DNA of 46,861 nt from Acholeplasmataceae bacterium (GTDB lineage: Bacteria; Bacillota_I; Bacilli_A; Acholeplasmatales; Acholeplasmataceae), in the NCBI GenBank assembly GCA_028690555.1, contig JAQVBA010000002.1:1-46861 (forward strand), read 5' to 3'. The notes under the pieces were generated by a model. That model made no database searches and had not been told where the DNA came from. It saw nothing but the letters and a program-made list of their open reading frames with translations. Made by a program: the position numbers and the translations under genes. This document shows, piece after piece, positions 5,997 to 46,861 of the stretch. Positions within the stretch are counted from its first letter, which is position 1; each line of letters begins with the position of its first letter.

Positions 5997-6034
5997 AAAT
6001 AAAACCACCTTTCTTGCGAAACCATGCTTTTTAA

Positions 6035-6308: not shown

Positions 6309-6371
6309 CTTTTTAATCTTTTTTGGTTTCTATATGTTATCATGAAATCACGAATAGAGGGGTATCAACAT

Positions 6372-7736: not shown

Positions 7737-7865
7737 GTGTTTATAAATTGTTGTAAATATGGTATAATAATTACGGTATAAAGCCATTCTAGGTTTTTCC
7801 CACAAATCCACATTTGTAACAATAATTTAAAGACTAATCTATAAGAAAATAAAGGAGCCGTCGTT
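7737..7865. other. oriC, downstream part (dnaA-dnaN intergenic: AT-rich region plus DnaA boxes)
   Basis: Two adjacent boxes keep the TCCACA/CCCACA core: TTTCCCACA at 7796-7804 and AAATCCACA at 7804-7812. They are flanked by very AT-rich sequence (7741-7790 and 7813-7850), which is a candidate unwinding region. The bipartite arrangement resembles Bacillus-type origins. Confidence 0.6.
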
Positions 7866-8996: not shown

Positions 8997-9002
8997 AGTG
9001 TA

Positions 9003-9036
9003 AAAGCCTTAATTTCAATTTTAAGGCTTTTTTTAT
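9003..9036 (+). terminator. Intrinsic terminator after dnaN
   Basis: AAAGCCTTAA (9003-9012) pairs with TTAAGGCTTT (9021-9030). TTTTTTATT follows. Confidence 0.8.
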
Positions 9037-9104
9037 TATTCAGATGACACAAAGATGCTACCCTAAAAAAATGCGCTTAAATGAGTGCATTTTTCCTTAT
9101 ATTA

Positions 9105-9113
9105 TGTTATAAT
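9105..9113 (+). promoter_or_regulatory. Extended -10 promoter element (TGtTATAAT) for yaaA-recF-gyrBA
   Basis: TG at 9105-9106, one nt, then TATAAT at 9108-9113. It lies downstream of the dnaN terminator. Confidence 0.45.
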
Positions 9114-9137
9114 ATAAATGAAGGAATGGTGTATCTT

Positions 9138-9342
9138 GTGAAAAAATTTGTTTTAAAAACTGAATTTATAACTTTGGGACAATTATTAAAAGCTACCGAC
9201 AAAATTGGTTCTGGTGGAGAAGCCAAGTTTTTTTTATTTAATCACAAGTGTTTAGTCAATGGAATTCACACCCTAGAACGTGGTAAAAAGATTCGTGATA
9301 AAGATGTTGTTGTGATTGATCAAGATACGTATACAATCGTCC

Positions 9343-9353
<11 letters not shown>
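9138..9353 (+). CDS. yaaA: S4-domain RNA-binding protein YaaA
   Basis: (V->M)KKFVLKTEFITLGQLLKATDKIGSGGEAKFFL...ERGKKIRDKDVV. It is ~71 aa from the GTG at 9138, which matches the usual size and N-terminal register of YaaA. The alternative start ATG at 9126 abuts the putative -10/RBS. The track ORF start at 9081 is upstream of the promoter-like element. Confidence 0.7.
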
Positions 9354-12271
<2,918 letters not shown>

Positions 12272-12285
12272 GAAAGGAGAAAAAC

Positions 12286-14889
12286 ATGAACGAAGAAACA
12301 TCAAAAACCACCGAGGGTTACGTCAAAGAGATTAATATATCTTCTGAAATGAAGACCTCCTTTTTAAATTATGCAATGTCTGTTATTGTTTCAAGAGCTT
12401 TACCGGATATTCGAGATGGGCTTAAACCGGTTCAAAGACGTATTTTATACGCGATGAATGATTTAGGTATGTCAGCAAGTTCTGCACATAAAAAATCAGC
12501 GCGTATTGTCGGTGAAGTTATTGGTAAATATCATCCTCATGGTGATTCATCTGTCTATGATGCGATGGTCCGTATGGCACAACCATTTAGTTATAACATG
12601 CCTTTAATTGATGGTCACGGTAATTTTGGTTCTGTAGATGGTGATGGCGCAGCAGCCATGCGTTATACAGAAGCTAGAATGTCAAAGATTGCTGGTGAAT
12701 TAGTTAGGGATTTAGATAAGAACACGGTTGATTTTATCGATAATTATGATGGATCAGAACATGAACCATCTGTTTTACCTGCAAGATATCCAAATTTATT
12801 AGTTAATGGATCTACAGGGATTGCTGTAGGTATGGCAACAAATATTCCACCACACAACTTGAGTGAAGTTATCGATGGAATATTAGCTTACATGGACAAT
12901 GAAGAAATTACTTCAACTGAATTGATGCAATACATTAAAGGACCAGATTTTCCAACGGGCGGTCAAGTTTTAGGTCTTACAGGACTTAGACAAGCTTATG
13001 AAACTGGTAAAGGGATTATCGCAATTAGAGCAACCGCTGAGATTGTGACTCACAAAAACCGTAACAGTATCATCATTACAGCAATTCCATATCAAGTGAA
13101 TAAAACCACACTCATTGAAAAAATTGCAGAAATTGCGAAAGAGAAGATTGTGGATGGAATTACGGATTTAAGAGATGAATCCAATCGTAAAGGTATGCGG
13201 ATTGTCATCGAACTTAGAAGAGATGTTAATCCACACGTGATGTTAAACAATCTTTATAAGTTCACACAGCTACAAACATCATTTGGTATCAATATGATTG
13301 CTCTTGTTAAAGGGCAACCGATGATGGTTACACTTAAAGACATGCTCAAATATTATGTTGAGCACCAAATTGAAGTGATTCAACGCCGTACGACCTATGA
13401 TCTAGAAAAAGCGGAAGCTCGCGAACATATTTTAGAAGGATTATTAATTGCATTGCATGATATCGATCATGCGATTGAAATTATCAAGCAATCCAAAACA
13501 GGTGATGAAGCACGTGAAGCGTTGATTAACACATACAATCTCACTGAAATTCAAGCAAGAGCTATATTAGATATGCGCTTGCAGCGTTTAACGGGTCTTG
13601 AAATTGAAAAGATTGAACTTGAACAAAAGGACTTAGCGATTAAAATTATTGATTTCAAAGAAATTATTGGAAGTCATGAACGTAAAATGACGATTATTAA
13701 AGATGAACTTGGACAAATGAGAAATCAATACCAAATTAATCGACAATCAGAAATTAATCTACATGAAGATTTAAGCATTGAAAATGAAGATTTAATTCCG
13801 GTAGAAGATGTTATTATTACTGTCACGAATAATGGGTATATCAAACGTATGAAAGTTGACCATTATAAGACACAAAATCGTGGTGGGGTTGGTATGTCAG
13901 GAATCAAAGTTCACGAAGATGATTACGTTGAACACATCTTAATGACTTCAACGCATGATTATCATTTGTTCTTCACAAATAAAGGTCGAGTTTATAAGAT
14001 CAAAGGATACCAAATTCCTGAAGGTTCAAGACAATCTAAAGGGTTACCACTTGTTAACTTATTACAACTTGATAAAGATGAAACACTTGCTTCATTTACA
14101 AGTGTAAAAGACTTTGAAAATAATGAAAACAATCTTACATTTGTTACAAAAAAAGGCATCATCAAGCGTACTAAAATTTCTGAATACCAAAATATTAGAA
14201 CGAATGGAATTATTGCAATTAACTTAAGAGAAGATGATGAATTATTAGCTGTAAAAGCAACCGACGGTAATAAGGATATTATCCTTGGCGCATCCAACGG
14301 TAAAGCAATTCGATTTAAAGAAACTGATGTTAGAGTCATGGGAAGAACTGCAACCGGAGTTAAGGGAATGAGTATTGGCAAAGATGATTTCTTGGTCGGA
14401 GCTGCTATTGTTGAAAACAGCGAACAACAAATTCTTGTAATTACTGAAAATGGCTTTGGAAAGCGAACTAATGTTGATGAATATCGCTGCCAATTACGTG
14501 GTGGTAAAGGTGTTAAAACATTAAATGTCACTGAAAAGAACGGCCGTTTATCAACATTAAAATCTGTTTCTGATGATGATGATTTAATCGTTGTTTCCGA
14601 TAAAGGTGTTGTGATTAGAACGCATGTCGATCAAATTTCACAGACCAAACGTGCAACACAAGGTGTCAGAATTATTCGTTTAAGACCAGATCATAAAGTA
14701 TCAACAATCGCTTTAGTTCCAAGACAAGATGAAGAAGAAATCGAAGTTGTTGAACAAACACCATTCATTCAAGAAACTATGGATGTAAACACTGAAAGAA
14801 AAGTTGTTGAAGTTTCAAATTTAGAACCTGAAGAAATCGAAGATGAAGATGATGAAGTCATTACAACAGATTCATTATTCGATGAATAA
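12286..14889 (+). CDS. gyrA: DNA gyrase subunit A
   Basis: [14 protein letters not shown] and the active-site region [10 protein letters not shown] are present. The C-terminal beta-pinwheel repeats are followed by a ~50-aa acidic tail. Confidence 0.97.
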
Positions 14890-20429: not shown

Positions 20430-20476
20430 TATCAGGGCTTCTTTACTTTCTCTTAAGGTTTCACTATAATAAAGAT

Positions 20477-20690
20477 AACACGTTAAAAAGAGCATAGTAA
20501 TTTGAAATATGCATGAAAAAGAGACATCACAAAAGGTGAAAGTGATGATGCATTTCAAATGAATCCACTCTTTAGTGGCGCTAATCACGTCCGTTATCCT
20601 GCGTTAAAGGAAATGAGGGCTAGGAATTCCTAGAACTAAGGTGGTACCGCGATGATTCGTCCTTAGATTTTTATCTAGGGACTTTTATTT
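20477..20690 (+). promoter_or_regulatory. T-box leader upstream of serS
   Basis: A TATAAT -10 lies at 20465-20470. Stem I elements are AGAGCATAGTAA and GGTGAAAG. The candidate specifier TCC-A lies at 20564-20566 (GAATCCACTC); it aligns with the AAC-ACTC of the asnS leader. The T-box motif AACTAAGGTGGTACCGCG is at ~20635-20652. The terminator is GTCCTTAGAT (20659-20668) paired with ATCTAGGGAC (20673-20682), followed by TTTTATTT. Confidence 0.88.
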
Positions 20691-20707: not shown

Positions 20708-21985
20708 ATGTTAGATTTAAAATGGTTAACTGAGAATATGGATGAAGCAATCCAAAGATTAGAAACACGTCAAGGTGATTTTTCATTTGTTCGGGAGCTT
20801 TCCACGCTTCAAAATGCTCGGAAAGATAAAATTGCTGAAGTTGAGAGGTTAAAAGCTTTTCGCAATGAGCAATCAAAAAAAATTGGTGAATTAAAAAGAC
20901 AAAAATTAGATGCATCAGAAGTTTTAAATGATGTTGCTCATATTGGTGATGAAATTAAAACGCTTGATGATGAACTTCAAGGAATTGAGACGAAAATTTT
21001 TGAAATTTTATCAATTATTCCTAATCTTCCACATCAAAGTGTGCCTATTGGCAAGGATGAAAATGATAATCAAGTCATCCGTGTCGTTGGCAAGCCAAAA
21101 GAATTTAATTTTAAAGTAAAAGATCATGTTGAACTTGGTGAAAAATTAAATATTTTAGATTTTGAACGTGCAGCGAAAATTACGGGCGCTAGATTTGTTG
21201 TTGATAAAGGATTAGGCGCACGTTTGGAAAGATCTTTAATTCAATTTATGATGGATTTACATGCCCATGAACATGGATATACGGAAATTATCCCTCCTTA
21301 TATCGTCAATGAAAAAAGTATGTATTCCACCGGGCAATTTCCTAAGTTTAAAGATGATGCTTTCCGTGTAGGCACAGATGAAAACAATTGGTATTTAAAT
21401 CCTACAGCTGAAGTACCGACGATCAATCTTTATCGTGATGAAATTATTGATGGTGATGCATTACCATTCCATTATTGTTCATATACCACAGCATTTAGAG
21501 CTGAAGCGGGATCAGCAGGTAGAGACACAAGGGGAATTTTGAGACAACATCAATTCAATAAAGTAGAATTGATTAAATTTACCAAACCCGAAACGTCATA
21601 TGATGAACTTGAAGCGATGCTGATTAATTCTGAAGAAGTCTTAAAACGATTAGAATTACCATATCGTGTGGTTTGTTTATCCACTGGAGATATGGGTTTT
21701 GGAATGGCTAAAACCTATGATATTGAAGTATGGTTACCCGGACAAAACACATATCGTGAAATTGGATCAATTTCAAATGCTGAAGACTTTCAAGCAAGAC
21801 GGGCAAATATTCGTTTTAAACGCTCAAAGGATAGCAAAACAGAGTACGTCCATACATTAAATGGTTCTGGGCTAGCGGTTGGAAGAACGATGATTGCGAT
21901 TATCGAAAATTATCAAAATGAAGATGGTTCAATTACAGTGCCAAAAGCATTAATTCCATACATGAAAGTTGAATGTATTAAATAA
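20708..21985 (+). CDS. serS: Serine--tRNA ligase
   Basis: 425 aa with an N-terminal coiled-coil arm. Class II motifs are [21 protein letters not shown] and [16 protein letters not shown]. An AGGAGG RBS is present. Confidence 0.95.
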
Positions 21986-35250: not shown

Positions 35251-36837
35251 ATGGAAAAAATAACAGTTTTATGCGAAAAAATGGGCGTCATTGGTGATGA
35301 ATGTATCCCTTATGGCTTTGATAAGGCTAAGATTGATCTATCTGTTTTAAAAAGATTAGAAAACAAGCCCAATGGGAAACTTATTTTAGTGACTGCGATT
35401 AATCCTACACCCGCTGGTGAAGGAAAAACAACCGTATCAATCGGACTCACTCAAGGACTTAAAGAAATTGGCAAACATCCTGTTTTAGCATTAAGAGAAC
35501 CAAGTTTAGGACCAGTTTTTGGTCTTAAAGGTGGAGCAACTGGTGGTGGAAAAGCCAGTGTTACTCCTTCGGATGATATTAATCTTCATTTTACAGGTGA
35601 TCTTCATGCGATAACAGCTGCAAATAACTTATTATCAGCATTGATTGACAATCATATATTTCAAGGAAACGAATTAGGTATTGAAACTGTCACTTGGAAG
35701 CGTTGCATGGATATGAACGATCGTAGTTTAAGAGACATTGACACACCGATAAGAAAAGATGGGTTTGTCATTACTGCAGCAAGTGAAATCATGGCTATTT
35801 TAGCCTTGGCTACTGATCTTAAAGATTTGAAAGCAAGAATTAATCGTATTCTTGTAGGATATACGAACGAAAATAAACCTGTTTACGTCAAAGATTTAGG
35901 TGGCGCAGATGCAATGACATTACTTTTAAAGAATGCGATTAATCCAAATCTAGTTCAAACAGTTGATGGTGTTCCAACATTTGTTCACGCTGGACCATTT
36001 GCTAACATCGCACATGGATGTAATTCGATTGTTGCAACTAAACTTGCTTTAAAACTTGGAGACTATGCTGTGACTGAAGCTGGATTTGGTGCAGATTTAG
36101 GTATGGAAAAATTTATTGATTTAAAAATGCCTTATCTTGATAAAAATGTGGATGCAATCGTCATTGTGGCAACTTTAAGAGCATTAAAATCCCATGGAGG
36201 TGCTGAAGATTTTTCAGCTGAAAACCATGAAGCGCTTCGTTTAGGAATTCCTCATTTAAATAAGCATATTGAAAACATTAAAGGTTTTGGCTTACCATAT
36301 GTTATTGCGTTAAATCATTTCTATACTGATACCGATGAAGAACTTAAGATATTGATGGATTGGGCGAAAGAAAACAATCATCCAATCGCTTTAGCTAAAG
36401 GATTTTCTGAAGGTGGCAAAGGTATGGTTGACTTAGCGAATATTGTAGTTGAAATTGCAAATCAAAAATCAACAATTAAACCAACGTATAGTGCAGAAGA
36501 TTTGCCACAAACCAAGATTGAGAAAATCGCAAAAAACTTGTATGGTGCTAAAGAAGTTGTATTTACTAAGAAAGCAAAAGAACAACTTGAACAATACGCA
36601 TCACTTGGATGGAATCTACCTGTATGTATGGCGAAAACGCCGCTTTCACTCACTGGAGATCCTAAAATAAAAGGTTTACCTACCGATTTTACATTAACGA
36701 TTCAAGAAATTAGACCCTCACTAGGTGCAGGCTTTTTAGTGGCTTTAACCAAAGGCATTATGGTTATGCCGGGTTTAAATAAAACACCACGTGCCATTTC
36801 AATGGTTTTGGACGATGAGGGAAATCTCATCGATTAA
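35251..36837 (+). CDS. fhs: Formate--tetrahydrofolate ligase
   Basis: LILVTAINPTPAGEGKTT plus family-typical blocks (GPVFGLKGGATGGG, PTFVHAGPFANIAHGCNS). At 528 aa it is somewhat shorter at the N-terminus than the ~555 aa I expect. Confidence 0.93.
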   Translation: MEKITVLCEKMGVIGDECIPYGFDKAKIDLSVLKRLENKPNGKLILVTAINPTPAGEGKTTVSIGLTQGLKEIGKHPVLALREPSLGPVFGLKGGATGGGKASVTPSDDINLHFTGDLHAITAANNLLSALIDNHIFQGNELGIETVTWKRCMDMNDRSLRDIDTPIRKDGFVITAASEIMAILALATDLKDLKARINRILVGYTNENKPVYVKDLGGADAMTLLLKNAINPNLVQTVDGVPTFVHAGPFANIAHGCNSIVATKLALKLGDYAVTEAGFGADLGMEKFIDLKMPYLDKNVDAIVIVATLRALKSHGGAEDFSAENHEALRLGIPHLNKHIENIKGFGLPYVIALNHFYTDTDEELKILMDWAKENNHPIALAKGFSEGGKGMVDLANIVVEIANQKSTIKPTYSAEDLPQTKIEKIAKNLYGAKEVVFTKKAKEQLEQYASLGWNLPVCMAKTPLSLTGDPKIKGLPTDFTLTIQEIRPSLGAGFLVALTKGIMVMPGLNKTPRAISMVLDDEGNLID

Positions 36838-36848
36838 GGAGGATAATC

Positions 36849-37694
36849 ATGATCCTATTAGATGGGAAGAATGTTGCAAAAGAACGGAATTTATTACTTA
36901 AACAAAAAATTGAAGAACATATAAAATCACAACGCGAACCACATCTTTCAATTATTTTGATTGGTGAAAATCCAGCGAGTATTTCGTATGTAACCGGTAA
37001 AGGAAAAGCATGCAAACTTGTTGGTATAAAACACACATTACATCATCTAAGTGATACCGTGACTGAAGATGAAGTGGCAGCACTCATCGAAACACTCAAT
37101 CAAGATGATTCAGTGGATGGAATCTTGTTACAACTACCAATACCTAAACATTTAAATGATTCAAAACTAATCGATCTGATCTCAAGAGATAAAGATGCTG
37201 ATGGTTTTCATGTGATTAATCAGGGATACCTTTATCAAAAAAAGCCAACGATTTATCCTGCAACCCCTAAAGGAATCATCTCTTTATTGGAACATTACAA
37301 CATTGAAATAGCTTCAAAACACGCAGTGATTGTTGGAAGAAGTAATATTGTAGGTTTTCCTGTAGCAAGATTACTCATGGACCGTGGAGCAACCATTACT
37401 GTATGTCATAGACAAACAAAAGATCTTTCATATCACACAAGACAAGCAGATATCATTATTGCATCTGCGGGAACTCCACTACTCATTAAGAAAGAAATGG
37501 TTAAAGAAGGAGCAATTGTCGTTGATGTTGGTGTAAACCGCTTAGAAGGAAAACTTGTAGGAGATGTATGTTTTGATGAAGTTTCGGAAGTTGCAAGTTA
37601 TCTTTCACCTGTGCCGGGTGGCGTTGGACCGATGACAATTAATGCATTACTTGAAAACACGTATGAGTTATATTTAAAGCATATAAATCGTTAA
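36849..37694 (+). CDS. folD: Bifunctional methylenetetrahydrofolate dehydrogenase/methenyl-THF cyclohydrolase
   Basis: ILVGENPASISYV, GILLQLPIP, VIVGRSNIVGFPVA, SPVPGGVGPMT. Confidence 0.95.
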   Translation: MILLDGKNVAKERNLLLKQKIEEHIKSQREPHLSIILIGENPASISYVTGKGKACKLVGIKHTLHHLSDTVTEDEVAALIETLNQDDSVDGILLQLPIPKHLNDSKLIDLISRDKDADGFHVINQGYLYQKKPTIYPATPKGIISLLEHYNIEIASKHAVIVGRSNIVGFPVARLLMDRGATITVCHRQTKDLSYHTRQADIIIASAGTPLLIKKEMVKEGAIVVDVGVNRLEGKLVGDVCFDEVSEVASYLSPVPGGVGPMTINALLENTYELYLKHINR

Positions 37695-37710
37695 TCTCAT
37701 TAAATCAATC

Positions 37711-37738
37711 AACACCCATTTTTTGGGTGTTTTTTTTA
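37711..37738 (+). terminator. Intrinsic terminator after folD
   Basis: ACACCC (37712-37717) pairs with GGGTGT (37725-37730). A run of 8 T follows. Confidence 0.85.
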
Positions 37739-37786
37739 ACATATAATGTTACAATAGAAATGTAAAAAAAGTAAGGGGCATATCCG

Positions 37787-38335
37787 ATGAATATTTGGCA
37801 TGATATTAGCAAATCTAGAATTAAACCAGAACGATTTGTAGCATGTATTGAAATCTCTAAAGGCAGTAAAAAAAAATATGAACTTGATAAAGAAACAGGC
37901 ATGATTATTCTTGATCGAATCTTGTTTACATCTACACATTATCCAGCAAATTATGGATTTATTCCAAGAACTTATGCTGGTGATAATGACCCACTAGATG
38001 TTTTGGTCTTATGTCAAGAAGATATTGAACCTTTATCAATTGTCGATTGTTATCCCATTGGGGTGATTAAAATGATTGATTCTGATGAAATCGATGAAAA
38101 GATTATTGCTGTACCTTTTGGTGATCCTTCGCTTACACAATATAAGGATATTGGTGAATTACCGCAGCATTTATTAACTGAAATGAGTCATTTTTTCGAA
38201 GTTTATAAATCGCTTGAAGGAAAAAAGACGTATATTTTAGATATTGAAGGCGTTGAAGAAGCGAAAAAGATTATAAATTCATGTATTGACACTTACGAAG
38301 AAAAATTTAAAGATAGAGCAAAGAAAGAGGAATAA
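37787..38335 (+). CDS. ppa: Inorganic pyrophosphatase, family I
   Basis: 182 aa with EISKGSKKKYELDKETG, YPANYGFIP and DNDPLDVLVL. Confidence 0.92.
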   Translation: MNIWHDISKSRIKPERFVACIEISKGSKKKYELDKETGMIILDRILFTSTHYPANYGFIPRTYAGDNDPLDVLVLCQEDIEPLSIVDCYPIGVIKMIDSDEIDEKIIAVPFGDPSLTQYKDIGELPQHLLTEMSHFFEVYKSLEGKKTYILDIEGVEEAKKIINSCIDTYEEKFKDRAKKEE

Positions 38336-38339
38336 TATT

Positions 38340-39065
38340 ATGGGAAGAGCATTTGAAGTACGAAAGGTAGCGATGCAAAAAACTGCTGCTGCTAAAGGTA
38401 AACTCTATGCGAAATACGGCAAAGAAATTTATATGGCCGCAAAATCTGGAACTCCTGATCCAGACACGAACCAAGCATTAAAACGCATCATTGAAAAGGC
38501 TAAGAAAGAACAAGTAACTGCGGATGTGATCAAGCGTGCGATTGATAAAGCTAAAGGCGGAAGCGATGAAAACTATGCAGAAGCGCGATATGAAGGCTTT
38601 GGTCCAGGGAATTCAATGATTATCGTTGAATGCCTAACAGATAATCCAAATCGTACGATTGCAGAAGTACGTAATTGTTTTACAAAAACAGGCGGTAAAC
38701 TAGGTGTTTCTGGTTCAGTGATGCATCAATTTAATCATTATGCGGTCTTGACAATGCCAGGATTAACAGAAGATGAAGTATTAGAAATATTAATCACAAA
38801 TGACCTAGATGCACAAGAGATTGAAACCGATGAAGAGGGTGTCACTGTATATTCTGATGCATCGAATTATAATAACATTCGTCAAGCAATTTTAGATGTA
38901 CATCCGGATTTCGATTTCCAAACAGAAGAAATTATGTGGTTACCAATTATGGAAACATCGTTTGATCATGAAGAAGACCAAGATAAATTTGATCGTTTGG
39001 TTGGTATGCTCGATGAACTTGATGATGTTCAAAACGTTTATCATAACGTGAGTTTCAAAGAATAG
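38340..39065 (+). CDS. yebC: YebC/PmpR-family DNA-binding transcriptional regulator
   Basis: MGRAFEVRKVAMQKTAAAKGKLYAKYGKEI ... YEGFGPG. I place the start at the ATG at 38340, after the ppa stop, with an AAGAAAGAGG RBS. The track start at 38286 lies inside ppa. Confidence 0.9.
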   Translation: MGRAFEVRKVAMQKTAAAKGKLYAKYGKEIYMAAKSGTPDPDTNQALKRIIEKAKKEQVTADVIKRAIDKAKGGSDENYAEARYEGFGPGNSMIIVECLTDNPNRTIAEVRNCFTKTGGKLGVSGSVMHQFNHYAVLTMPGLTEDEVLEILITNDLDAQEIETDEEGVTVYSDASNYNNIRQAILDVHPDFDFQTEEIMWLPIMETSFDHEEDQDKFDRLVGMLDELDDVQNVYHNVSFKE

Positions 39066-39110
39066 AAATTAAATTTTGAAGGTTACTTAAATTCTATGAA
39101 ATACTTAATA

Positions 39111-39150
39111 AAAGAAGCGTTTTCAGTGACTTGAATGCTTCTTTTATTTT
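39111..39150 (+). terminator. Intrinsic terminator after yebC
   Basis: AAAGAAGC (39111-39118) pairs with GCTTCTTT (39137-39144), with additional inner pairing. TATTTT follows. An extended -10 (TGcTATAAT, 39162-39170) lies downstream and would serve glyA. Confidence 0.7.
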
Positions 39151-39198
39151 GACTTTTATTATGCTATAATAAACTGAAGAATCATCGAGGAGGATAGA

Positions 39199-40446
39199 AT
39201 GAATCTACGATTGAAAGATGCCGAGATCGATAGTTTTATCCAAAAAGAACTAAATCGACAAGAAGAGCACATTGAATTGATTGCGTCTGAGAATTTTGTT
39301 TCACCCGCAGTTTTAGAAGCACAAGGATCAATTTTGACCAATAAATATGCTGAAGGATATCCGAAAAAAAGATATTATGGTGGTTGTGAGTTTGTGGATG
39401 AGATTGAAACACTTGCGATTGAACGATTAAAAAAATTGTTTGACGCTAAATATGCCAATGTACAACCACATTCTGGTTCACAAGCCAATATGGCAGTGTA
39501 TCAAGCATTATTAAATCCAGGTGATAAAATTTTAGGTATGTCACTTGCTGAAGGTGGACATTTGACACATGGATTTAGTTTAAATTTTTCTGGAAAATTT
39601 TATCAGTCTTATTTTTATGGTGTTGACCAAATAACAGAACAAATTGATTACGATAAATTGAGGGAACTTGCATTAGAAATTAAGCCCAAACTTATTATTG
39701 CTGGAGCGAGTGCATATTCTAGAATTATCGATTTTAAACGTTTTAGAGAAATTGCGGATGAGGTTGGGGCATATCTTCACGTAGATATGGCGCATATCGC
39801 TGGATTAGTTGCTGCTAAGCTTCACCCATCACCACTTCCATATGCGCATGTCGTATCATCAACGACACATAAGACTTTAAGAGGTCCTCGAGGAGGTATC
39901 ATCTTAACGAATGATGAAGTGGTAGCTAAGAAAATTGATAAAGCTGTATTTCCTGGTGTTCAAGGCGGTCCATTAATGCATGTGATTGCAGCTAAAGCTG
40001 TTGCGTTTAAAGAAGCTTTAACCGATGAATTTTTAGATTACCAAAAACAAGTTGTAAAAAATGCACAAGCATTTGCGGATGAAATGATGAAATTAGGTTA
40101 TCCGATTGTGAGTGGCGGAACTGACAATCATCTATTCTTAGTCAATGTGAAAAAGACATTAGGAATTACAGGATTAGATGCAGAAAATACGCTGCATCGC
40201 GTAAGTATTACATGCAATAAAAATGGTGTTCCTTTTGATACTGAAAAACCTGCATATGCAAGTGGTATTCGTTTAGGCACTCCCGCAGTTACAACAAGAG
40301 GATTTAAGGAAGATGATATGCGACTTGTTGCAAGTTTCATTGATCAAGCATTACGACATAAAGATAATCCAGAAATTATTGAAACCATTAGAAAAAAAGT
40401 CATCGAACTGACTAAAAAATATCCATTATACACGAAGGGAGTATAA
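39199..40446 (+). CDS. glyA: Serine hydroxymethyltransferase
   Basis: [24 protein letters not shown], and the PLP-lysine motif [14 protein letters not shown]. Confidence 0.96.
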
Positions 40447-40449
40447 AAG

Positions 40450-41748
40450 ATGATAGCAAGAACAAAATATATTCCAGATGGTAAAAAACATCTTAAAGAA
40501 TTACCAATCTTGCATTACCTTGATGCAGAATATTTATATTATCCTGTGACAAGTGCGCGTTGTCCAGAAGGGGAAACGTGCGTTAGAGGTGGCCAATTTG
40601 TTAAAGTTGGAGAAGTTATCGGAACAAGAAAAGGTGCATTCTTCGAACAACCAATGCATGCCACAGTAAGTGGAGAAGTTGTGGGTTATGAAAATCACAT
40701 TGATCAAAGTGGTAAAGTTGTTAACTGTTTAATCGTTAAAAACGATAAAAAGTATGAACTTCATGAATCCATTGTGGATCGTACCGATGAAGAAATTGAC
40801 GCTTTAACAAAACAAGAGTATGTTGAAATTGTTAAAGAAGCTGGATTAGTAGGACTTGGAGGAAGTGCATTCCCAAGTTATATTAAACTCGATTCAAAAG
40901 ATCCAATTGATGTTGTCATCGCAAACGGTGTTGAATGTGAGCCTAATCTAATCAGTGATTATGGTCTCATGATGACCAGTCCTGAGATGGTGATTCGCGG
41001 ATTAATTTATGCGATGAAAGCTTCAGGAGCTAAACGCGGTGTGATTGCCATTAAGAAGAAATATGTTGAACTTTATGAACGCTTGAGTTTCAAGCTTAAA
41101 GAATTCCCAAATGAAAATATCGAAGTGATTAACGTTGGCAATTATTATCCACAAGGATGGGAACTTGCAATGATTAAAGAAGCCTTAAAGATTAAAATTC
41201 CTCAAGGCAAATTACTTTCAAAATATGGCGTTTTAAACTTTAACGTTTCAACTTTAGCAAGTATTTATATGGCTGTTAAAAAGAGACTTCCAGTTTTAGA
41301 AAGATTCATCACATTTAGTGGTGATGGCATTCATAATAAAACGTTTAGAGCACGTATTGGTACATTAATGACCAATCTTATTGAACTTGCTGGTGGTTAT
41401 ATCGATGAAGAAAAACCTAAAGTACTCATATTAGGTGGACCGATGATGGGAACGAACATTAATCGTGATGATATCGTGATGACGCATACGACAACAAGTT
41501 TGATTGTTATGAATGAAGAAATCGTGAAAGAAGAACCATGTGTACACTGTGCTTCATGTGTGTATTCTTGCCCGGTTCAAATTCAGCCAGTTCAAATTAT
41601 GAACGCTTATAAAGTTCGTGATAAAGATGCGTTAAAGATGCTTGAGGTTAGTAAGTGTATTGAATGTGGATTGTGCTCCTATGTATGTCCATCGAAGATT
41701 CACTTAACCGAATATATGCGTTCTGGTAAACGCTTTGCTAGTAAATAG
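40450..41748 (+). CDS. rnfC: Rnf complex subunit C (NADH/FMN-binding, 2x[4Fe-4S])
   Basis: 432 aa. It has an RnfC N-terminal barrel region, GLVGLGGSAFPSYIK (51-kDa-like nucleotide/FMN site), and two ferredoxin motifs CVHCASCVYSCP and CIECGLCSYVCP. It starts 3 nt after the glyA stop, with its RBS (AAGGGAG) inside glyA. Confidence 0.9.
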   Translation: MIARTKYIPDGKKHLKELPILHYLDAEYLYYPVTSARCPEGETCVRGGQFVKVGEVIGTRKGAFFEQPMHATVSGEVVGYENHIDQSGKVVNCLIVKNDKKYELHESIVDRTDEEIDALTKQEYVEIVKEAGLVGLGGSAFPSYIKLDSKDPIDVVIANGVECEPNLISDYGLMMTSPEMVIRGLIYAMKASGAKRGVIAIKKKYVELYERLSFKLKEFPNENIEVINVGNYYPQGWELAMIKEALKIKIPQGKLLSKYGVLNFNVSTLASIYMAVKKRLPVLERFITFSGDGIHNKTFRARIGTLMTNLIELAGGYIDEEKPKVLILGGPMMGTNINRDDIVMTHTTTSLIVMNEEIVKEEPCVHCASCVYSCPVQIQPVQIMNAYKVRDKDALKMLEVSKCIECGLCSYVCPSKIHLTEYMRSGKRFASK

Positions 41749-41759
41749 GAGGAAATGAT

Positions 41760-42836
41760 ATGCAAACAGTAAAACAAACAAGTCCTTATATTCGTAAAGC
41801 CGTTTCGACCAAACGAATGATGACGGATGTATTAATTGCATTATTACCTGTCACCGCTTTTGCGATTTATCGCTTTGGATTTGATGCGATTATAAGAATT
41901 ATCGTATCACTTGTTGTGATGATAGGTTTAGAAGCTTTAGCATTTGGCATGATGCATAAGCCAAAAAAAGATGGAACTAAAATCGAAAAAATCAAATCAA
42001 GATATGCAGAGTTTTCAATAAACAATGTGATTACTCCTGCAATTAGTGGTTTGATTTTTGCAATGATTATTCCATCTAAATTACCAATTTATGCTGTGAT
42101 TGTTGGTGCAGCTTTCGGTATTATCGTTGGGAAAATGTTATTTGGCGGATTAGGATCAAATATCTTCAATCCTGCTGCAGTTGGCCGTATATTTATTACA
42201 TTGGCTTTAACTCCGATGTTTACAGGAACTTATGTTGGTGTTGATTTAGTTGCAGGCAGTACAGCACTTTCAACTTTGCGCAGTGGTTTAGGATTCCCTG
42301 GTGTTTTAAATAGTTATCCATTGATGGACATGTTTATGGGCTTCACACCTGGTGCCATGGGGGAAATTAGTGCTCTAGCAATTTTAATTGGTGGCGTATA
42401 CTTATTAATTCGTCGATCAGCAGATTATAGAGTCGTACTCTCTGCGTTTTTAACATTCATAGTTTTAATTGGTTTAGCCGGTTTGAGATTATATCCTGAT
42501 CAAATCTTATCTTACACATTAATGCATTTATTATCTGGCGGTTTAATGTTTGGATTCATCTTCATGATTACTGACCCAGTGACATCACCAGTAACTCGTC
42601 CAGGACGATTTGCATATGGTGCGTTAGTTGCCGTATTGGTTGTACTCATTCGTTTATTTGGATCTTATCCAGAAGGTGTTGCATTTGCAATATTATTTAT
42701 GAACATGTTTGTTCCATTGATTGACTATCCAAAATGGTCAACCAATAAAGTGAAACCTGTATTTATCGCAAGTTACGTCGTGGGCTTAATTGTCTTTGGC
42801 CTCGTCGTATTCTTTGGTGTAGGAGGTAGTGTATAA
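41760..42836 (+). CDS. rnfD: Rnf complex subunit D (polytopic, NqrB-like)
   Basis: 358 aa with ~9-10 TM helices. Motifs are NIFNPAAVGR and TDPVTSP. A candidate flavinylation-type segment DLVAGST lies at codons 162-168 (nt 42243-42263). Confidence 0.9.
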   Translation: MQTVKQTSPYIRKAVSTKRMMTDVLIALLPVTAFAIYRFGFDAIIRIIVSLVVMIGLEALAFGMMHKPKKDGTKIEKIKSRYAEFSINNVITPAISGLIFAMIIPSKLPIYAVIVGAAFGIIVGKMLFGGLGSNIFNPAAVGRIFITLALTPMFTGTYVGVDLVAGSTALSTLRSGLGFPGVLNSYPLMDMFMGFTPGAMGEISALAILIGGVYLLIRRSADYRVVLSAFLTFIVLIGLAGLRLYPDQILSYTLMHLLSGGLMFGFIFMITDPVTSPVTRPGRFAYGALVAVLVVLIRLFGSYPEGVAFAILFMNMFVPLIDYPKWSTNKVKPVFIASYVVGLIVFGLVVFFGVGGSV

Positions 42837-43801
42837 TGAAAGAATTTTTCAAAAAACCTCTGGTTCATTACACAACAGTTTTAACAATCGTCGCGATCAT
42901 CTGTGGTCTATTAATCGGTGGAGTTAATGCAATTACTGCACCAGTGATTAAACAAAATGAAATAGATGCTCAAAACAAGTCTTACCAAGAAGTATTGCCT
43001 GCTGGAGAAACATTTGAAGTGATTGAACTTGATAATGCACCAGCATCAATTACGACTGCAGTTAAAGGTTTAGATAGTTCTAATCAAGTGGTTGGCTACA
43101 TTTATATCGCATCTGGTACAAATAAACATGGATCGATGACAATCGCGATTAGTATTGATGCACAAGGTAAAGTTTTAGGTGCACAATTTGTGAGCATTCA
43201 ACAAACTTTAAATGTTGAAGGAACTCGTTTTAATCTTTCACTATTTGTGGGAACTCAAATTAGCGCACTTGCTCCGGATGGTGATTTAGTCAGTGGTGTA
43301 ACAAACAGTTTGAATACTGTTAGAGCGTTATTAACTGATGTCGCAACAGTCCATGCAGAAGTTGCAGATGTCCCACTTGATCCTTACACTGTCATGTTCG
43401 GTGAAGGATTCACTAAGGAAGTTGATAGTTCATTTGTAGCAACCGAATATGTTAAATCAAAAGAACTTGTTAAAGACTCAAATGGAACCGATATTGCTTT
43501 CCTATACAAGTTAAATGGATTTGGCATTTATAATAGTGAATCTACTGAAGAAAAAGATATAACACTTTATGTTGGTGTTGATAATGATGGTAAAATTTTA
43601 GGTATTGTTGTACCTGCTGATGAATATCATCATACAGGTGGTGGGTTATATACAAACACAGTAACATTCCTTGAAATTTATGCAAACACCATGTTAAGTG
43701 ATGTTGAAACTACAGGTGCTGACTTAACTTCAGGAGCAACTAATTCCAAGAATTTGGCAAATCAACTTATGGCAGCATTGAAGGAGGTTGTTCTCGGATG
43801 A
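42836..43801 (+). CDS. rnfG: RnfG-like subunit, paralogue 1: TM anchor plus two tandem FMN-binding-type modules
   Basis: 321 aa, against ~180-210 aa for usual RnfG. It has an N-terminal anchor (TVLTIVAIICGLLIGGV) and VLP. Module 1 ends in DLVSGVT (nt 43283-43303). Module 2 has HHTGGG and ends in the canonical DLTSGAT (nt 43721-43741). There is a TAATG overlap with rnfD. Confidence 0.8.
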   Translation: MKEFFKKPLVHYTTVLTIVAIICGLLIGGVNAITAPVIKQNEIDAQNKSYQEVLPAGETFEVIELDNAPASITTAVKGLDSSNQVVGYIYIASGTNKHGSMTIAISIDAQGKVLGAQFVSIQQTLNVEGTRFNLSLFVGTQISALAPDGDLVSGVTNSLNTVRALLTDVATVHAEVADVPLDPYTVMFGEGFTKEVDSSFVATEYVKSKELVKDSNGTDIAFLYKLNGFGIYNSESTEEKDITLYVGVDNDGKILGIVVPADEYHHTGGGLYTNTVTFLEIYANTMLSDVETTGADLTSGATNSKNLANQLMAALKEVVLG

Positions 43802-44778
43802 AAAAAGAAAATTTATGGTTATTAATTAATACTGGAATTATGCTTGTTATTGGTATCGTTTTAGTTATTGTGGCAAATACCGTAATTCCAAAAGAACCTA
43901 AAGATCGTCTCTTCAATCAAGTGATTCAACTTGAAAACCAAGAAACAGTTGAAGGCGTTCCAGCAGGTAGTAGTTATGCAACTATTGATTACAAAGCTGA
44001 CGCTGTATCGAGATCCGGTGATGTTTTAGGAACTGTTTATAATGTAAAGGTTAGAAATGGTTACAAACTCTCAGCTGATGATACAAGTGGATATATTGAA
44101 TTACTTATTGCCATCGACGAAAATGATTTAGTCTTTGTTGAAATTGTGGTTCTTAATCAATCAAACTGGACCGTTAAAGGCATTCAAAACTATATCGTTG
44201 AATATTATGATGGTGTTCTACTTGAACAAATCGAAAAATTCCCAGCATACGATGCTGCTGATTTAGAAGCAGGAGCAACCGCTGTGGATAGTACAGGAAC
44301 AATTAAGAATCTGATTATTAGAACTTTAAAAGTACATTTTAATATTCAAGATGATCCATATATTGATTATTTCGGTGAAGGTTACACATTAGAAGATGAT
44401 GCTACATTTATTCCGACAGAACATGTCATCTACAAGCAAAATGTGAAAGATTCATCTGGTAATGATGCGGGAACAATCTATGAATTAGAAGGTACTGGAG
44501 AATATTTAGGATATGATGGCATTTCATCTGGATCCATCACAATGTATGTTTTATTTGATGAAAATGCAGAAATCATTTCAATTCTTATGCCAGATTCACT
44601 CTATGGGCATACTGCAGGATTTAAAGCAAGAAATGATGCGTACTTAAATGAATTTATCGGATTAACTATTTTAGAAATTCAAGCAGTTATCGATGAAAAT
44701 GTTGATTTGAAAACTGGTGCGACAGGATCTAGAGCACTTATTGATATATTGCTAGCTGCACTAAGTGAGGTGAACTAA
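43798..44778 (+). CDS. rnfG: RnfG-like subunit, paralogue 2: TM anchor plus two tandem FMN-binding-type modules
   Basis: 326 aa with the anchor LLINTGIMLVIGIVLVIVA. Module 1 ends in DLEAGAT (nt 44260-44280). Module 2 (GHTAGF) ends in DLKTGAT (nt 44704-44724). It is clearly paralogous to the preceding gene; compare DPYTVMFGEGFTKE with DPYIDYFGEGYTLE. There is an ATGA overlap with paralogue 1. Confidence 0.8.
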   Translation: MKKENLWLLINTGIMLVIGIVLVIVANTVIPKEPKDRLFNQVIQLENQETVEGVPAGSSYATIDYKADAVSRSGDVLGTVYNVKVRNGYKLSADDTSGYIELLIAIDENDLVFVEIVVLNQSNWTVKGIQNYIVEYYDGVLLEQIEKFPAYDAADLEAGATAVDSTGTIKNLIIRTLKVHFNIQDDPYIDYFGEGYTLEDDATFIPTEHVIYKQNVKDSSGNDAGTIYELEGTGEYLGYDGISSGSITMYVLFDENAEIISILMPDSLYGHTAGFKARNDAYLNEFIGLTILEIQAVIDENVDLKTGATGSRALIDILLAALSEVN

Positions 44779-44779
44779 C

Positions 44780-45469
44780 ATGACTGATGCTAAAAAAGTT
44801 CCAGCTAAAAAAACAGCTGAAAAAAATGAAGATTCTCTTTTAAATATTTTCACCAAAGGTATTTGGAAAGAAAATGGCATTTTCGTGATGGTTCTTGGTA
44901 TGTGTCCTGCGCTTGCGGTGACATCGACATTTGAAGGTGCATTTGGAATGGGAATTCTTGTGTTCTTAGTGCTCACCATGACTAACATATCCGTCTCAGC
45001 TATTAGAAAACTAGTGCCAAACACAGTGAGAATTCCTGTATACATTATTATTATTGCAACTGAAGTAACCGTTATTAAGATGTTGGTTGATGCATTTGCA
45101 CCTGCACTTGCTGCTGAACTTGGTGTATTCATTGCTTTAATTACAGTGAACTGTGTTGTCTTCGGGCGTGCAGAATCATTCGCTTCTAAAAATACAGTCA
45201 TTAAATCAGCACTTGATGGTATGGGAGTTGCTGTTGGATTTGCGTTAGCCTTAGTCATCATTGGATTCTTTAGAGAATTCTTTGGAACTGGCATGATTCA
45301 ATTAGGGAAAATATTACCTCTTGGTTTTGAATATGCTGTATTAGGAAATGCGGGATTAGACAAATATGCATTCTCTGTACTCGTTCAACCTCCAGGAGCA
45401 TTCTTAGTAATTGGATTTATCTTAGCAGTAATTGTAGCTATAAGACAAGCAAAGGGGGCTAAGAAATAA
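44780..45469 (+). CDS. rnfE: Rnf complex subunit E (NqrD-like)
   Basis: 229 aa and polytopic. Conserved Cys contexts are VLGMCPALAVT and ITVNCVVFGRAE. Confidence 0.9.
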   Translation: MTDAKKVPAKKTAEKNEDSLLNIFTKGIWKENGIFVMVLGMCPALAVTSTFEGAFGMGILVFLVLTMTNISVSAIRKLVPNTVRIPVYIIIIATEVTVIKMLVDAFAPALAAELGVFIALITVNCVVFGRAESFASKNTVIKSALDGMGVAVGFALALVIIGFFREFFGTGMIQLGKILPLGFEYAVLGNAGLDKYAFSVLVQPPGAFLVIGFILAVIVAIRQAKGAKK

Positions 45470-46041
45470 TGAACTTAATTGCAATTTTAATTTCCGCGAT
45501 GATTGTTAATAACATCGTGTTGATGCAGTTCTTAGGCCTTTGTTCATTCTTTGGTGTTTCCACTAAGATGAAATCTGTTGTGGGTATGGGGGCAGCGGTT
45601 ATCGTCGTTATTTTCCTATCTGCAGCCATTACATTTCCACTCTATAAATTTGTATTAATTCCATTAAAAATTGAATACATTGATACAATCGCATTTATTC
45701 TAGTTATCGCATCACTCGTTCAGTTGACTGAATTAGTGATTAAGCGTTTTTCCCAAAGTTTATATAAAGCACTTGGGGTTTATCTTCCATTAATCGCGAC
45801 CAACTGTGCCGTACTTGGTGTTGCTTTAACAAACATCACTATTGATCAAACATATGTTGAGGCTTTATTTAATGCACTTGGCGGCGGAATGGGTTATGCA
45901 TTCATTATCATCACTTTCACAGCCATTCGCATGCGTTTAGATTCAGCAAGTGTTCCTAAAGCACTAAAGGGTATGCCTATTGCGCTAGTAACTGCTGGGC
46001 TTATGGCGTTAGCATTTATGGGATTGGCAGGTATCATCTAA
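45469..46041 (+). CDS. rnfA: Rnf complex subunit A (NqrE-like)
   Basis: 190 aa and polytopic. Conserved Cys contexts are FLGLCSFFGVS and LIATNCAVLGVAL. There is a TAATG overlap with rnfE. Confidence 0.9.
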   Translation: MNLIAILISAMIVNNIVLMQFLGLCSFFGVSTKMKSVVGMGAAVIVVIFLSAAITFPLYKFVLIPLKIEYIDTIAFILVIASLVQLTELVIKRFSQSLYKALGVYLPLIATNCAVLGVALTNITIDQTYVEALFNALGGGMGYAFIIITFTAIRMRLDSASVPKALKGMPIALVTAGLMALAFMGLAGII

Positions 46042-46253
46042 TGTGGACAAGTTATTTAATTTTAATTGGAATCATTTCAGGATTCATTGGTCTCTATATG
46101 CTTACGATGCATTTAAATAAAAAAATAGCCGTTCCAGAAAGTTGTAAAGCAGCCTATTTAGAAGCCCAATCTTGCGAATCTTGTGCTTCTCGAGGCGGAG
46201 GCTGTGGTTTTAGTGACGCCATTGAATTTATGAAGGAGGTAAAACCAGAATGA
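46041..46253 (+). CDS. Small single-TM Cys-rich protein (NqrM-like architecture) embedded in the rnf operon
   Basis: 70 aa. One TM helix (YLILIGIISGFIGLYMLTM) and a basic patch are followed by C35-x9-C45-x2-C48-x6-C55 (ESCKAAYLEAQSCESCASRGGGCGF). The start overlaps the rnfA stop (TAATG) and the stop overlaps the rnfB start (ATGA). That coupling argues it is a real, co-translated gene. Confidence 0.6.
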   Translation: MWTSYLILIGIISGFIGLYMLTMHLNKKIAVPESCKAAYLEAQSCESCASRGGGCGFSDAIEFMKEVKPE

Positions 46254-46567
46254 CATTACTCTATCCTTTCATCGTCCTTGGTGGACTAGGTATCATTCTT
46301 GGAGTTGTTTTATCATTAGCTAATCAATATCTAACAGTAAAAGAAGATCCGAGAATTGATGACATTGAAAAATTATTACCTAATTATAATTGTGGCGCAT
46401 GTGGAACTCCGGGTTGCCGTGCATTTGCAACAGGTATTGTTGAAGGTGAAGTCAAAAATTTATCAAGATGTAAACCAGGTAAAGTAGATAAACATTATAA
46501 TCCTATTTTAGAGTATTTAAAGGACCATCCAAATCCGGATGGATCACATATTGATGTGAAGATTTAG
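46250..46567 (+). CDS. rnfB: Minimal RnfB: TM helix plus N-terminal RnfB-type Fe-S domain only (no ferredoxin-type domains)
   Basis: 105 aa with the TM helix LYPFIVLGGLGIILGVVLSL. LPNYNCGACGTPGCRAFATGIVEGEVKNLSRCKPG gives C-x2-C-x4-C-x17-C, the RnfB N-terminal cluster motif. The protein has only these four Cys and no CxxCxxCxxxCP motif. A strong AAGGAGG RBS is present, and a hairpin plus T-run follows the stop. Confidence 0.8.
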   Translation: MTLLYPFIVLGGLGIILGVVLSLANQYLTVKEDPRIDDIEKLLPNYNCGACGTPGCRAFATGIVEGEVKNLSRCKPGKVDKHYNPILEYLKDHPNPDGSHIDVKI

Positions 46568-46589
46568 GACATTCATTGTCCTTTTCTTT
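46566..46589 (+). terminator. Probable terminator at the end of the rnf operon
   Basis: AGGACA (46566-46571), loop TTCAT, TGTCCT (46577-46582), then TTTCTTT. The stem is short, at 6 bp. Confidence 0.5.
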
Positions 46590-46625: not shown

Positions 46626-46861
46626 ATGAAAAAATTTATATTTATACCTATATTAATCTTTATGTCTTTTATATTAATCGCATGTCAAGAAAAGGTCACA
46701 CCTATCAAAGTGACTTTTAGCGATTATATGTATACGTTCATATCGATTGATATTAAGCAAGCACCACAAGACATGGAAGAAGAAATAAAAGAAAACCTCG
46801 AACAAATTTTTCGTATGTATCATGAATTAGCGACTAATGAGGACCCTCTTCCTGAAGATTC
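46626..46861 (+). CDS. Lipoprotein, possible ApbE-family FAD:protein FMN transferase (5' part; continues beyond the window end)
   Basis: Absent from the track because it runs off the window. AAAAAGAGG lies upstream of the ATG at 46626. The product reads MKKFIFIPILIFMSFILIAC|QEKVTPIKVTFSDYMYTFISIDIKQ...IFRMYHELATNE. The lipobox LIAC is clear. The segment after the lipobox resembles the start of ApbE domains (an F.DT.I.I block followed by a helix). That match and the location after the rnf genes are the only support for the ApbE call. Confidence 0.4.
   Translation, partial: MKKFIFIPILIFMSFILIACQEKVTPIKVTFSDYMYTFISIDIKQAPQDMEEEIKENLEQIFRMYHELATNEDPLPED

Follow-up and report, generated by a model that had tools for sequence, protein, structure and literature searches.

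In anaerobes, Rnf has a central place in energy coupling. In the Rnf and Nqr complexes of solved structure, RnfG or NqrC holds its flavin mononucleotide (FMN) at the outer face, and electrons pass by way of it between the RnfA/E centre and the flavin of RnfD. To our knowledge, every solved Rnf complex has a single G subunit with a single flavin, which must move between two partners. What, then, is to be made of an Rnf operon with two G-like genes, each encoding two FMN-binding modules? Such a pair lies at positions 42836–44778, on the plus strand, of a stretch of 46,861 nucleotides (the window, for the purposes of this article) from an Acholeplasmataceae bacterium (contig JAQVBA010000002.1 of assembly GCA_028690555.1). 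The two genes are called G1 and G2 here. A first-pass annotation, made from the letters of the DNA alone, had described them as RnfG paralogues in tandem, both with a membrane anchor and, after it, two FMN-binding-type modules, and profile-profile comparison and predicted structures bear this description out.

The answer favoured here, with a probability of about 0.6, is that G1 and G2 together form the outer, flavin-bearing side of an Rnf complex specific to this lineage of wall-less bacteria of the Acholeplasmataceae type, with four covalent FMN and with G2 in or near the complex. This article follows the two proteins from their genes to their modules, motifs and evolutionary history, and then considers what such an outer face might do.

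Two G Genes Between rnfD and rnfE

The genes of the Rnf operon run in the order rnfC, rnfD, G1, G2, rnfE, rnfA, a 70-residue open reading frame (ORF) and rnfB, with overlapping or abutting junctions throughout. G1 and G2 thus lie between rnfD and rnfE, the position expected of an RnfG gene, and they keep it in about 20 species. Base 42836 is common to rnfD and G1, an ATGA overlap at 43798–43801 couples the translation of G2 to that of G1, and the stop of G2 at 44778 is followed by the start of rnfE at 44780. A ribosome-binding site of the GGAGG type precedes each of the two G genes, both ORFs are intact, and no terminator-like site was found on the plus strand within the operon.

G1 (42836–43801, plus strand) encodes 321 residues. 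Its membrane helix (residues 12–33; 42869–42934) continues into a stalk helix, the two forming a single predicted helix over residues 8–53 in the AlphaFold model, and it aligns with the anchors of 7zc6_G and 9eri_G. This is the best-conserved long segment of the protein (0.76), and only the short segment around the N-terminal motif scores higher (0.79). Next come the N module, which corresponds to the canonical FMN domain of RnfG (42998–43369), a linker VPLDPYTVMFGEGFTKE in which P183 and G189 are invariant (43370–43420), and an accessory C module (43421–43798). When profiles are compared, the anchor and N module (residues 9–128) match the RnfG chains of three solved Rnf complexes, with E-values of 9.4e-15 for 7zc6_G, 3.1e-8 for 9eri_G and 5.8e-4 for 8ahx_G. 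The AlphaFold model, whose mean predicted local distance difference test score (pLDDT) is 82.8, finds solved RnfG chains and NqrC in Foldseek (E 4.3e-7). Pfam FMN_bind also matches G1 (4e-7; 31 bits against a cut-off of 22), with two stretches at E<=1, the better of which (residues 241–306) falls in the C module; the same family matches all 27 of the 27 G1-family members. On these comparisons, G1 is an RnfG orthologue with one additional module.

G2 (43798–44778, plus strand; 326 residues) is built in the same way. Its predicted membrane helix (residues 6–28; 43813–43881) is covered by a model helix spanning residues 3–29, with L6, L8, I10, N11 and I14 conserved. It is followed by an N module, the most divergent of the four, with the signature S-x-W-T-V-K-G-I-Q (43930–44346), by a linker QDDPYIDYFGEGYTLE in which P187 is invariant and G193 and Y196 nearly so (44347–44394), and by a C module (44395–44775). 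BLASTP aligns the two proteins collinearly, residues 43–318 of G1 with residues 43–325 of G2, at 32% identity (E 4e-28). The first-pass annotation had pointed to a shared DPY..FGEG linker and to the same order of modules, and both hold: the linker is kept in the orthologues of either protein (P183 and G189 in G1, P187 and G193 in G2), and a DPY..FG boundary also stands upstream of every extra module in relatives with three. Similarity to G1, profile-profile comparison and predicted fold together assign G2 as an ancient, fast-diverged RnfG paralogue.

Could the pair be an artefact: a duplication made by the assembly, one gene split or shifted in frame, or a pseudogene in decay? Misassembly can yield similar tandem genes, and the databases hold one protein (P0011) that joins a G1 N module to a G2 C module. 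Against this, the two proteins share only 32% of their residues, the window contains no long DNA repeat between G1 and G2, both ORFs are intact behind their ribosome-binding sites, and the two are separate families in about 20 species, the cultured Peloplasma aerotolerans included. Divergence and conservation thus rule this explanation out, and its probability is negligible. The P0011 chimera itself may be a recombinant or an artefact of assembly.

Four Modules, Four Motifs

Each module carries one short motif close to its C-terminal end, and all four of those announced by the first-pass annotation were recovered in frame. In the N module of G1 it reads DLVSGVT (43283–43303; D150 to Thr156); nearly all orthologues have GD[LI]xxG[VA]T at this place, and T156 is conserved in at least 90% of them. 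The C module of G1 has DLTSGAT (43721–43741; D296 to Thr302), which varies among orthologues. DLEAGAT in the N module of G2 (44260–44280; D155 to Thr161) belongs to a stretch in which D155, A158, G159, T161, A162, S165 and T166 are invariant in 26 orthologues, and DLKTGAT in the C module of G2 (44704–44724; D303 to Thr309) is variable and occasionally lost. The pattern D..[STA]G[AV]T that covers the four is absent elsewhere from the 14,577 residues encoded by window ORFs of at least 100 residues, and none of 20,000 shuffles of G1 and G2 produced three or more matches to it.

Conservation is distributed accordingly. The motif is the best-conserved segment of both N modules (0.79 in G1, and 0.86 in G2, where it is the highest value of the whole protein). 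It ranks among the best in the C module of G1 (0.68), and in that of G2 it comes second (0.65) to the last helix (0.71). The motifs are under selection.

Are all four modules of one kind? The C modules of G1 and G2 match each other in hhalign with a probability of 100% (E 2.9e-58), and the N and C modules of G1 with 98.7%. A profile of 75 sequences links the N module of G2 to that of G1 at 98.3% (E 1.6e-14) and to either C module at 97.1%; a second profile-profile run gave 89.7% for the latter comparison, setting DAADLEAGAT over GADLTSGAT in register. In both AlphaFold models every module consists of five strands, a helix, a motif loop of low confidence and a long last helix, the N halves repeating the element order of the C halves. 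Because the modules are homologous to one another in hhalign and share this predicted order of elements, all four are assigned as FMN_bind-type domains. An anchor with at least two FMN-binding domains per polypeptide is accordingly found in G1 by Pfam as well as by hhalign, and in G2 by hhalign, not by Pfam alone. One feature sets all four apart: the loop that reads ETAGLG in the canonical RnfG relatives found in this analysis, and ETPGL in RnfG chains of solved structure, is replaced in each of them.

Would ApbE Accept All Four Sites?

The flavinylation motif recognised by ApbE is D-x-x-[S/T]-G-A-[S/T] (PMC12052999). Both C modules carry it in its strict form, DLTSGAT and DLKTGAT, in the loop before the last helix of the models, as had been claimed for them. 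The N modules depart from it at one position each, with Val for Ala in G1 and Ala for Ser/Thr in G2, and they had been called degenerate for this reason. The departures are real, yet the word overstates them: AG[AV]T and SGVT are frequent across the wider family, and a model substrate with the same Ala-to-Val change was still flavinylated to about 50% (PMC12052999). The RnfD of the same operon provides a further comparison. At its flavinylation site it has DLVAGST (42243–42263, plus strand), with Ala at position 4 and Ser at position 6 and hence non-canonical at two positions, in register with DGVTTAT of Clostridium tetanomorphum RnfD and DGYSGAT of Vibrio cholerae NqrB; in the related locus L019 the site reads DGLAGAT. 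Since these RnfD sites align with a site that is flavinylated in characterised Rnf and Nqr complexes, it is plausible that the transferase tolerates Ala at position 4 of the motif.

The enzyme itself is encoded close by. The 5′ part of a gene for an ApbE flavin-transferase lipoprotein (lipobox LIAC) lies downstream of rnfB at 46626–46861, on the plus strand, and runs off the window. It was correctly noticed as ApbE-like by the first-pass annotation: it is 79% identical to an orthologue in locus L001 that matches Pfam ApbE at 1.8e-46, and the same gene is present in loci L021 and L022. A cognate extracytoplasmic ApbE is thus at hand, and flavinylation at all four sites is plausible from the motifs. 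In the relatives L001 (12827–14909), L021 and L022, the ApbE gene is followed by genes for a NusG_II-domain protein and a membrane protein of the Hpre_diP_synt_I type, a trio that might serve flavin export and attachment.

An Old Pair With Exchangeable Ends

The searches found about 46 protein clusters of the G1 type and about 33 of the G2 type, and those that carry a name belong to Acholeplasmataceae, Tenericutes or Peloplasma. Loci were then located by G2-specific peptide patterns, with one genome per species, and 20 were returned. The gene order from fhs, upstream of rnfC, to the short rnfB is the same in every sufficiently long one of them, and two further contigs agree. The operon, including G1, G2, the 70-residue ORF and an RnfB of 105 residues, is in this way kept in about 20 species of Acholeplasmataceae, Mariniplasma and Peloplasma. 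RnfC, RnfD, RnfE and RnfA are 61–84% identical to their counterparts in the window overall (70–85% outside the closest relatives), and G1 and G2 are 37–50% identical.

Within this clade the two halves of the proteins have had different histories. The N modules of G1 and G2 are 19–27% identical to each other in every genome, and the nearest relative of an N module is the same paralogue in 39 of 39 cases; the duplication of the N module is therefore older than the clade. For the C modules, identity between G1 and G2 within one genome ranges from 15 to 95% (37% in the window), and orthologues share about 30–40%. The closest relative of the G1 C module is the G2 C module of its own genome in loci L004, L015 and L019. 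A tract of 300 nucleotides in L019 is 99% identical between the two C modules at the DNA level (9574–9873 and 10566–10865), and in a genome where G1 (P0010) and G2 (P0065) have three modules each, the last two modules are almost identical. This near-identity within genomes shows that gene conversion has repeatedly made the C modules of G1 and G2 alike, a case of concerted evolution. In L019 the C modules are moreover copies of an N-type module.

The number of modules varies as well. Some G1 and G2 proteins have three, and in one genome a G1 with three modules goes with a G2 that has two (proteins P0007 and P0067). C modules per protein range from 0 to at least 2 in close relatives, with about five in one distant representative: a G2-type protein of 899 residues (P0108), drawn from a library of 1.84 billion proteins, has six motifs about 143 residues apart. 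The first-pass annotation had proposed that a double-module gene was duplicated in place. Collinearity fits that proposal; as a plain duplication, however, it was dropped for the ancient split of the N modules and the recurrent exchange of C modules, as seen in the identity ranges, the nearest relatives and the L019 tract.

A Model for the Outer Face

How might these pieces work together? Both proteins are predicted to lie N-in/C-out, which would place all four modules outside the single membrane; as these cells have no wall, their flavins would face the medium directly. The helix and N module of G1 would occupy the canonical place of RnfG and relay electrons between the iron-sulphur centre of RnfA/E and the flavin of RnfD. 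G2 would be an additional anchored subunit or a tightly associated partner, its conserved N module acting as a second obligatory flavin site. The downstream ApbE lipoprotein would link FMN, through a phosphoester, to the final Thr of every motif, namely Thr156 and Thr302 of G1 and Thr161 and Thr309 of G2. The N modules would then be the conserved core, and the C modules accessory units that lengthen or branch an extracytoplasmic flavin relay, as has been proposed for multi-flavinylated RnfGs.

A number of observations weigh against this proposal. The NCBIfam rnfG model (TIGR01947) gives G1 45.6 bits against a cut-off of 102 and covers residues 15–124 only, and it does not match G2. Pfam FMN_bind has no match to G2 at E<=1 and finds only 1 of 26 orthologues (E 0.05), so that, taken literally, the HMM check suggested in the first-pass annotation goes against G2, whose assignment depends on profile-profile comparison and predicted fold. 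Searches of PDB chain profiles with full-length G2, its N module and the C modules gave nothing significant. In Foldseek the only high-probability match of the whole G2 model (pLDDT 79) is the RnfG chain 7zc6_G (probability 0.99), with a weak E-value of 0.033 and template modelling scores of 0.25/0.40, and the RnfG-type anchor and FMN domain are therefore seen in G2 only indirectly, through this match and the hhalign link between the two N modules. The C-module Thr motif is lost in some relatives (DDLISGFVV in L019, VAGAIYT in protein P0086), an exception and not the rule. The G2 of locus L021, with 193 residues, has a single module and no C module beside a G1 of 315 residues, and the array is thus partly dispensable. 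The four flavin sites are predicted from sequence, the membership of G2 in the complex is putative, and the solved Rnf complexes have a single G chain. Finally, Peloplasma aerotolerans carries this operon too (L005), and neither anthraquinone-2,6-disulphonate (AQDS) nor ferrihydrite stimulated its growth, while its consumption of O2 was insignificant (PMC11122141).

Some of these points could be read in another way: only the N module of G1 would work as a flavin site, and G2 and the C modules would form a cap or scaffold on the exposed face of Rnf, derived from FMN_bind, with motifs kept for folding or for other reasons independent of flavin. The escape of G2 from FMN_bind models, N-module motifs outside the strict consensus (PMC12052999), the loss, in some lineages, of the C-module motif or of the C module itself, the rapid change of the C modules compared with RnfC, RnfD, RnfE and RnfA, and a Peloplasma without an acceptor phenotype would all be expected. 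What makes this reading unlikely is the behaviour of the motif itself: the stretch that holds it is the best conserved in G2, with Thr161 invariant; an AG[AS]T variant also occupies the RnfD site of these organisms; AG[AV]T and SGVT recur in multi-module relatives at a regular spacing of about 143 residues; and loss of the motif is exceptional.

Another possibility is that G2 is a separate anchored surface flavoprotein, similar to PplA and merely co-transcribed with the complex, which would be reduced by the outer module of G1, or by some other donor, and would in turn reduce soluble or extracellular acceptors such as O2, flavins or metals. Known Rnf structures offer no place for a second G chain, N termini of the G2 type occur on proteins of as many as six modules (P0108), much like free multi-flavinylated proteins (PMC8238504, PMC10339131), and the reduced multi-flavin protein SaFMN3 can reduce O2 (PMC10339131). 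Yet in about 20 species G2 is always the gene between G1 and rnfE, and its junctions are coupled; polar as well as apolar positions of its helix are conserved (N11, L8 and others), which suggests specific helix packing; and the Peloplasma results with AQDS, ferrihydrite and O2 were negative or insignificant. A separate role for G2 therefore appears rather improbable. The same results argue against an electron path to the outside that sustains growth, at least in the conditions of those experiments, and extracellular electron transfer that supports growth, thus weakened, is retained only as a minority reading.

A bolder version of the model can also be drawn, in which the whole pump has been rebuilt around a one-cluster RnfB, a new Cys-rich membrane subunit and two anchored G proteins, with at least four covalent flavins arranged in a fixed chain that runs outwards on the bare surface of the cell. 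The N module of G2 would be an obligatory second relay site. Pairing of the two C modules into one pseudo-symmetric unit with two flavins would account for the tolerance of gene conversion between them. We regard this version as doubtful. If it were true, the complex could couple the oxidation of NADH or ferredoxin to an external acceptor or donor, or it could replace the swinging-domain step of canonical Rnf and Nqr by a static flavin wire.

The Remainder of the Operon and of the Window

The plus-strand string at the end of the window comprises fhs, folD, ppa, yebC, glyA, rnfC, rnfD, G1, G2, rnfE, rnfA, the 70-residue ORF, the short rnfB and the start of the ApbE lipoprotein gene. The first five genes (35251–40450) lie directly upstream of rnfC, and this synteny of one-carbon/folate and rnf genes recurs in about 20 species. 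Only 3 nucleotides separate the glyA stop from the start of rnfC (40450–41748, plus strand; 432 residues), which matches Pfam RnfC_N (1.3e-12), Complex1_51K (1.7e-37) and 4Fe-4S domains. It is followed by rnfD (41760–42836, plus strand; 358 residues), with matches to NQR2_RnfD_RnfE (2.5e-91) and to 7zc6_D (E 2.8e-47). RnfD ends in a hydrophobic C-terminal extension (KPVFIASYVVGLIVFGLVVFFGVGGSV, 42750–42836) that runs past the end of the alignment with C. tetanomorphum RnfD and may be an extra membrane helix. Downstream of the G genes come rnfE (44780–45469; 229 residues) and rnfA (45469–46041; 190 residues), both on the plus strand and both matching Pfam Rnf-Nqr (9.1e-58 and 1.2e-52). RnfE begins with a Lys-rich N-terminal extension (MTDAKKVPAKKTAEKNEDS..., 44780–44850), which is variable, several related loci aligning only from residue 14–19 onwards. 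A minus-strand ORF of 177 residues (44761–45294), antisense to rnfE, is most likely a chance ORF in sequence of low GC content.

Two genes remain before the ApbE lipoprotein gene. The 70-residue ORF (46041–46253, plus strand) is specific to the clade: it is kept in all complete related loci, and its 16 clusters all belong here. It encodes a single membrane helix and, after it, PESCKxAYxEAQSCxSC...C, in which the Cys residues are conserved. Its build resembles that of NqrM, the maturation factor of Nqr; this is an analogy only, and homology to NqrM was set aside, the ORF having no Pfam match. The truncated rnfB (46250–46567, plus strand; 105 residues) encodes the anchor and the first Fe-S domain only, that is, a membrane helix and one PF04060 domain (Pfam FeS, 1.1e-12) with four Cys. 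It aligns with only the first 75 or so residues of the RnfB structures and lacks the ferredoxin-like 4Fe-4S domains of solved RnfB (174–333 residues), and this short form is 74–93% identical in all related loci. A terminator-like hairpin, identified by consensus match only, follows rnfB on the plus strand at 46566–46582.

The window, a piece of chromosome with a low GC content (about 34%), takes in the replication origin genes. A run of dnaA, dnaN, recF, gyrB and gyrA, assigned from N-terminal sequences only, occupies positions 6342–14889, and the sign of the GC skew switches near 6000, so that the replication origin apparently lies inside the window. A T-box leader (Rfam RF00230, 104 bits) at 20474–20667 precedes an ORF at 20708–21985 that resembles seryl-tRNA synthetase.

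What Is Known and What Is New

Like RnfG and NqrC (FMN_bind PF04205; TIGR01947), both proteins have an N-terminal anchor helix, an extracytoplasmic FMN domain, an ApbE-type motif before the last helix and a gene between rnfD and rnfE. Unlike them, they come as two genes instead of one and with two modules per protein instead of one, G1 staying under the family cut-off and G2 undetected. Novelty was implied by the first-pass annotation for the double-module design, and the literature reduces it: Méheust et al. (2021, eLife; PMC8238504) reported from bioinformatics RNF clusters with a G subunit of several FMN domains, some clusters holding several multi-FMN proteins, and proposed a second or extended extracytosolic electron path as their role. 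The double-module G1 belongs to these multi-flavinylated RnfGs, known since 2021. Their survey differs from the present one in relying on Pfam FMN_bind, which is blind to G2, and the clade described here adds the truncated RnfB and the Cys-rich ORF of 70 residues.

Several other multi-flavin proteins can be compared. PplA of Listeria monocytogenes and SaFMN3/CbFMN4 are likewise surface-tethered, with 2–4 tandem FMN domains flavinylated on Thr by ApbE/FmnB, and co-expression with ApbE has been shown to load SaFMN3 and CbFMN4 with several covalent FMN each (PMC10339131). They are lipoproteins or secreted proteins encoded outside any Rnf operon, whereas G1 and G2 have an N-terminal helix of the RnfG type; profile searches of PDB chains with full-length G1 and G2 and with the module profiles matched RnfG chains only at E<=1, and none like PplA or SaFMN3. 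FMN-bind2 (Huang et al., 2024, preprint; PMC10979944) shares the even number of tandem FMN domains. Its sheet-to-sheet, pseudo-symmetric packing of two flavins would fit the concerted evolution of the two C modules. Unlike in FMN-bind2, the modules here measure about 125–145 residues, and parity is broken in some relatives (3+2, 2+1).

What appears to be new lies beside G1. A literature search for two or duplicated rnfG genes returned nothing relevant, and in the literature searched, PMC8238504 included, we found no description of a conserved second anchored G paralogue within the operon. Nor did that literature describe the invisibility of G2 to FMN_bind and the different evolutionary regimes of N and C modules, or the co-occurrence of these features with a one-cluster RnfB and a Cys-rich ORF of 70 residues. 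In public records G2 is a "hypothetical protein," as is its Peloplasma orthologue MDI6452239.1, and the paper on the Peloplasma genome gives MDI6452236-38, -40-41 and -43 as Rnf genes, leaving out -39 (the G2 orthologue) and -42 (the 70-residue ORF). This is a gap in annotation, and Pfam-based surveys of flavinylated proteins would miss G2.

For the biology of these bacteria, the finding means that a clade with cultured members, Peloplasma aerotolerans and Mariniplasma anaerobium among them, keeps a second G-like subunit, extra flavin modules and a stripped-down RnfB. Such a clade can serve as a natural experiment on the passage of electrons across the outer face of Rnf, and on whether multi-flavin RnfGs branch electrons outward, as was proposed in 2021. 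In these cells the pump may expose up to four covalent flavins on the surface instead of one.

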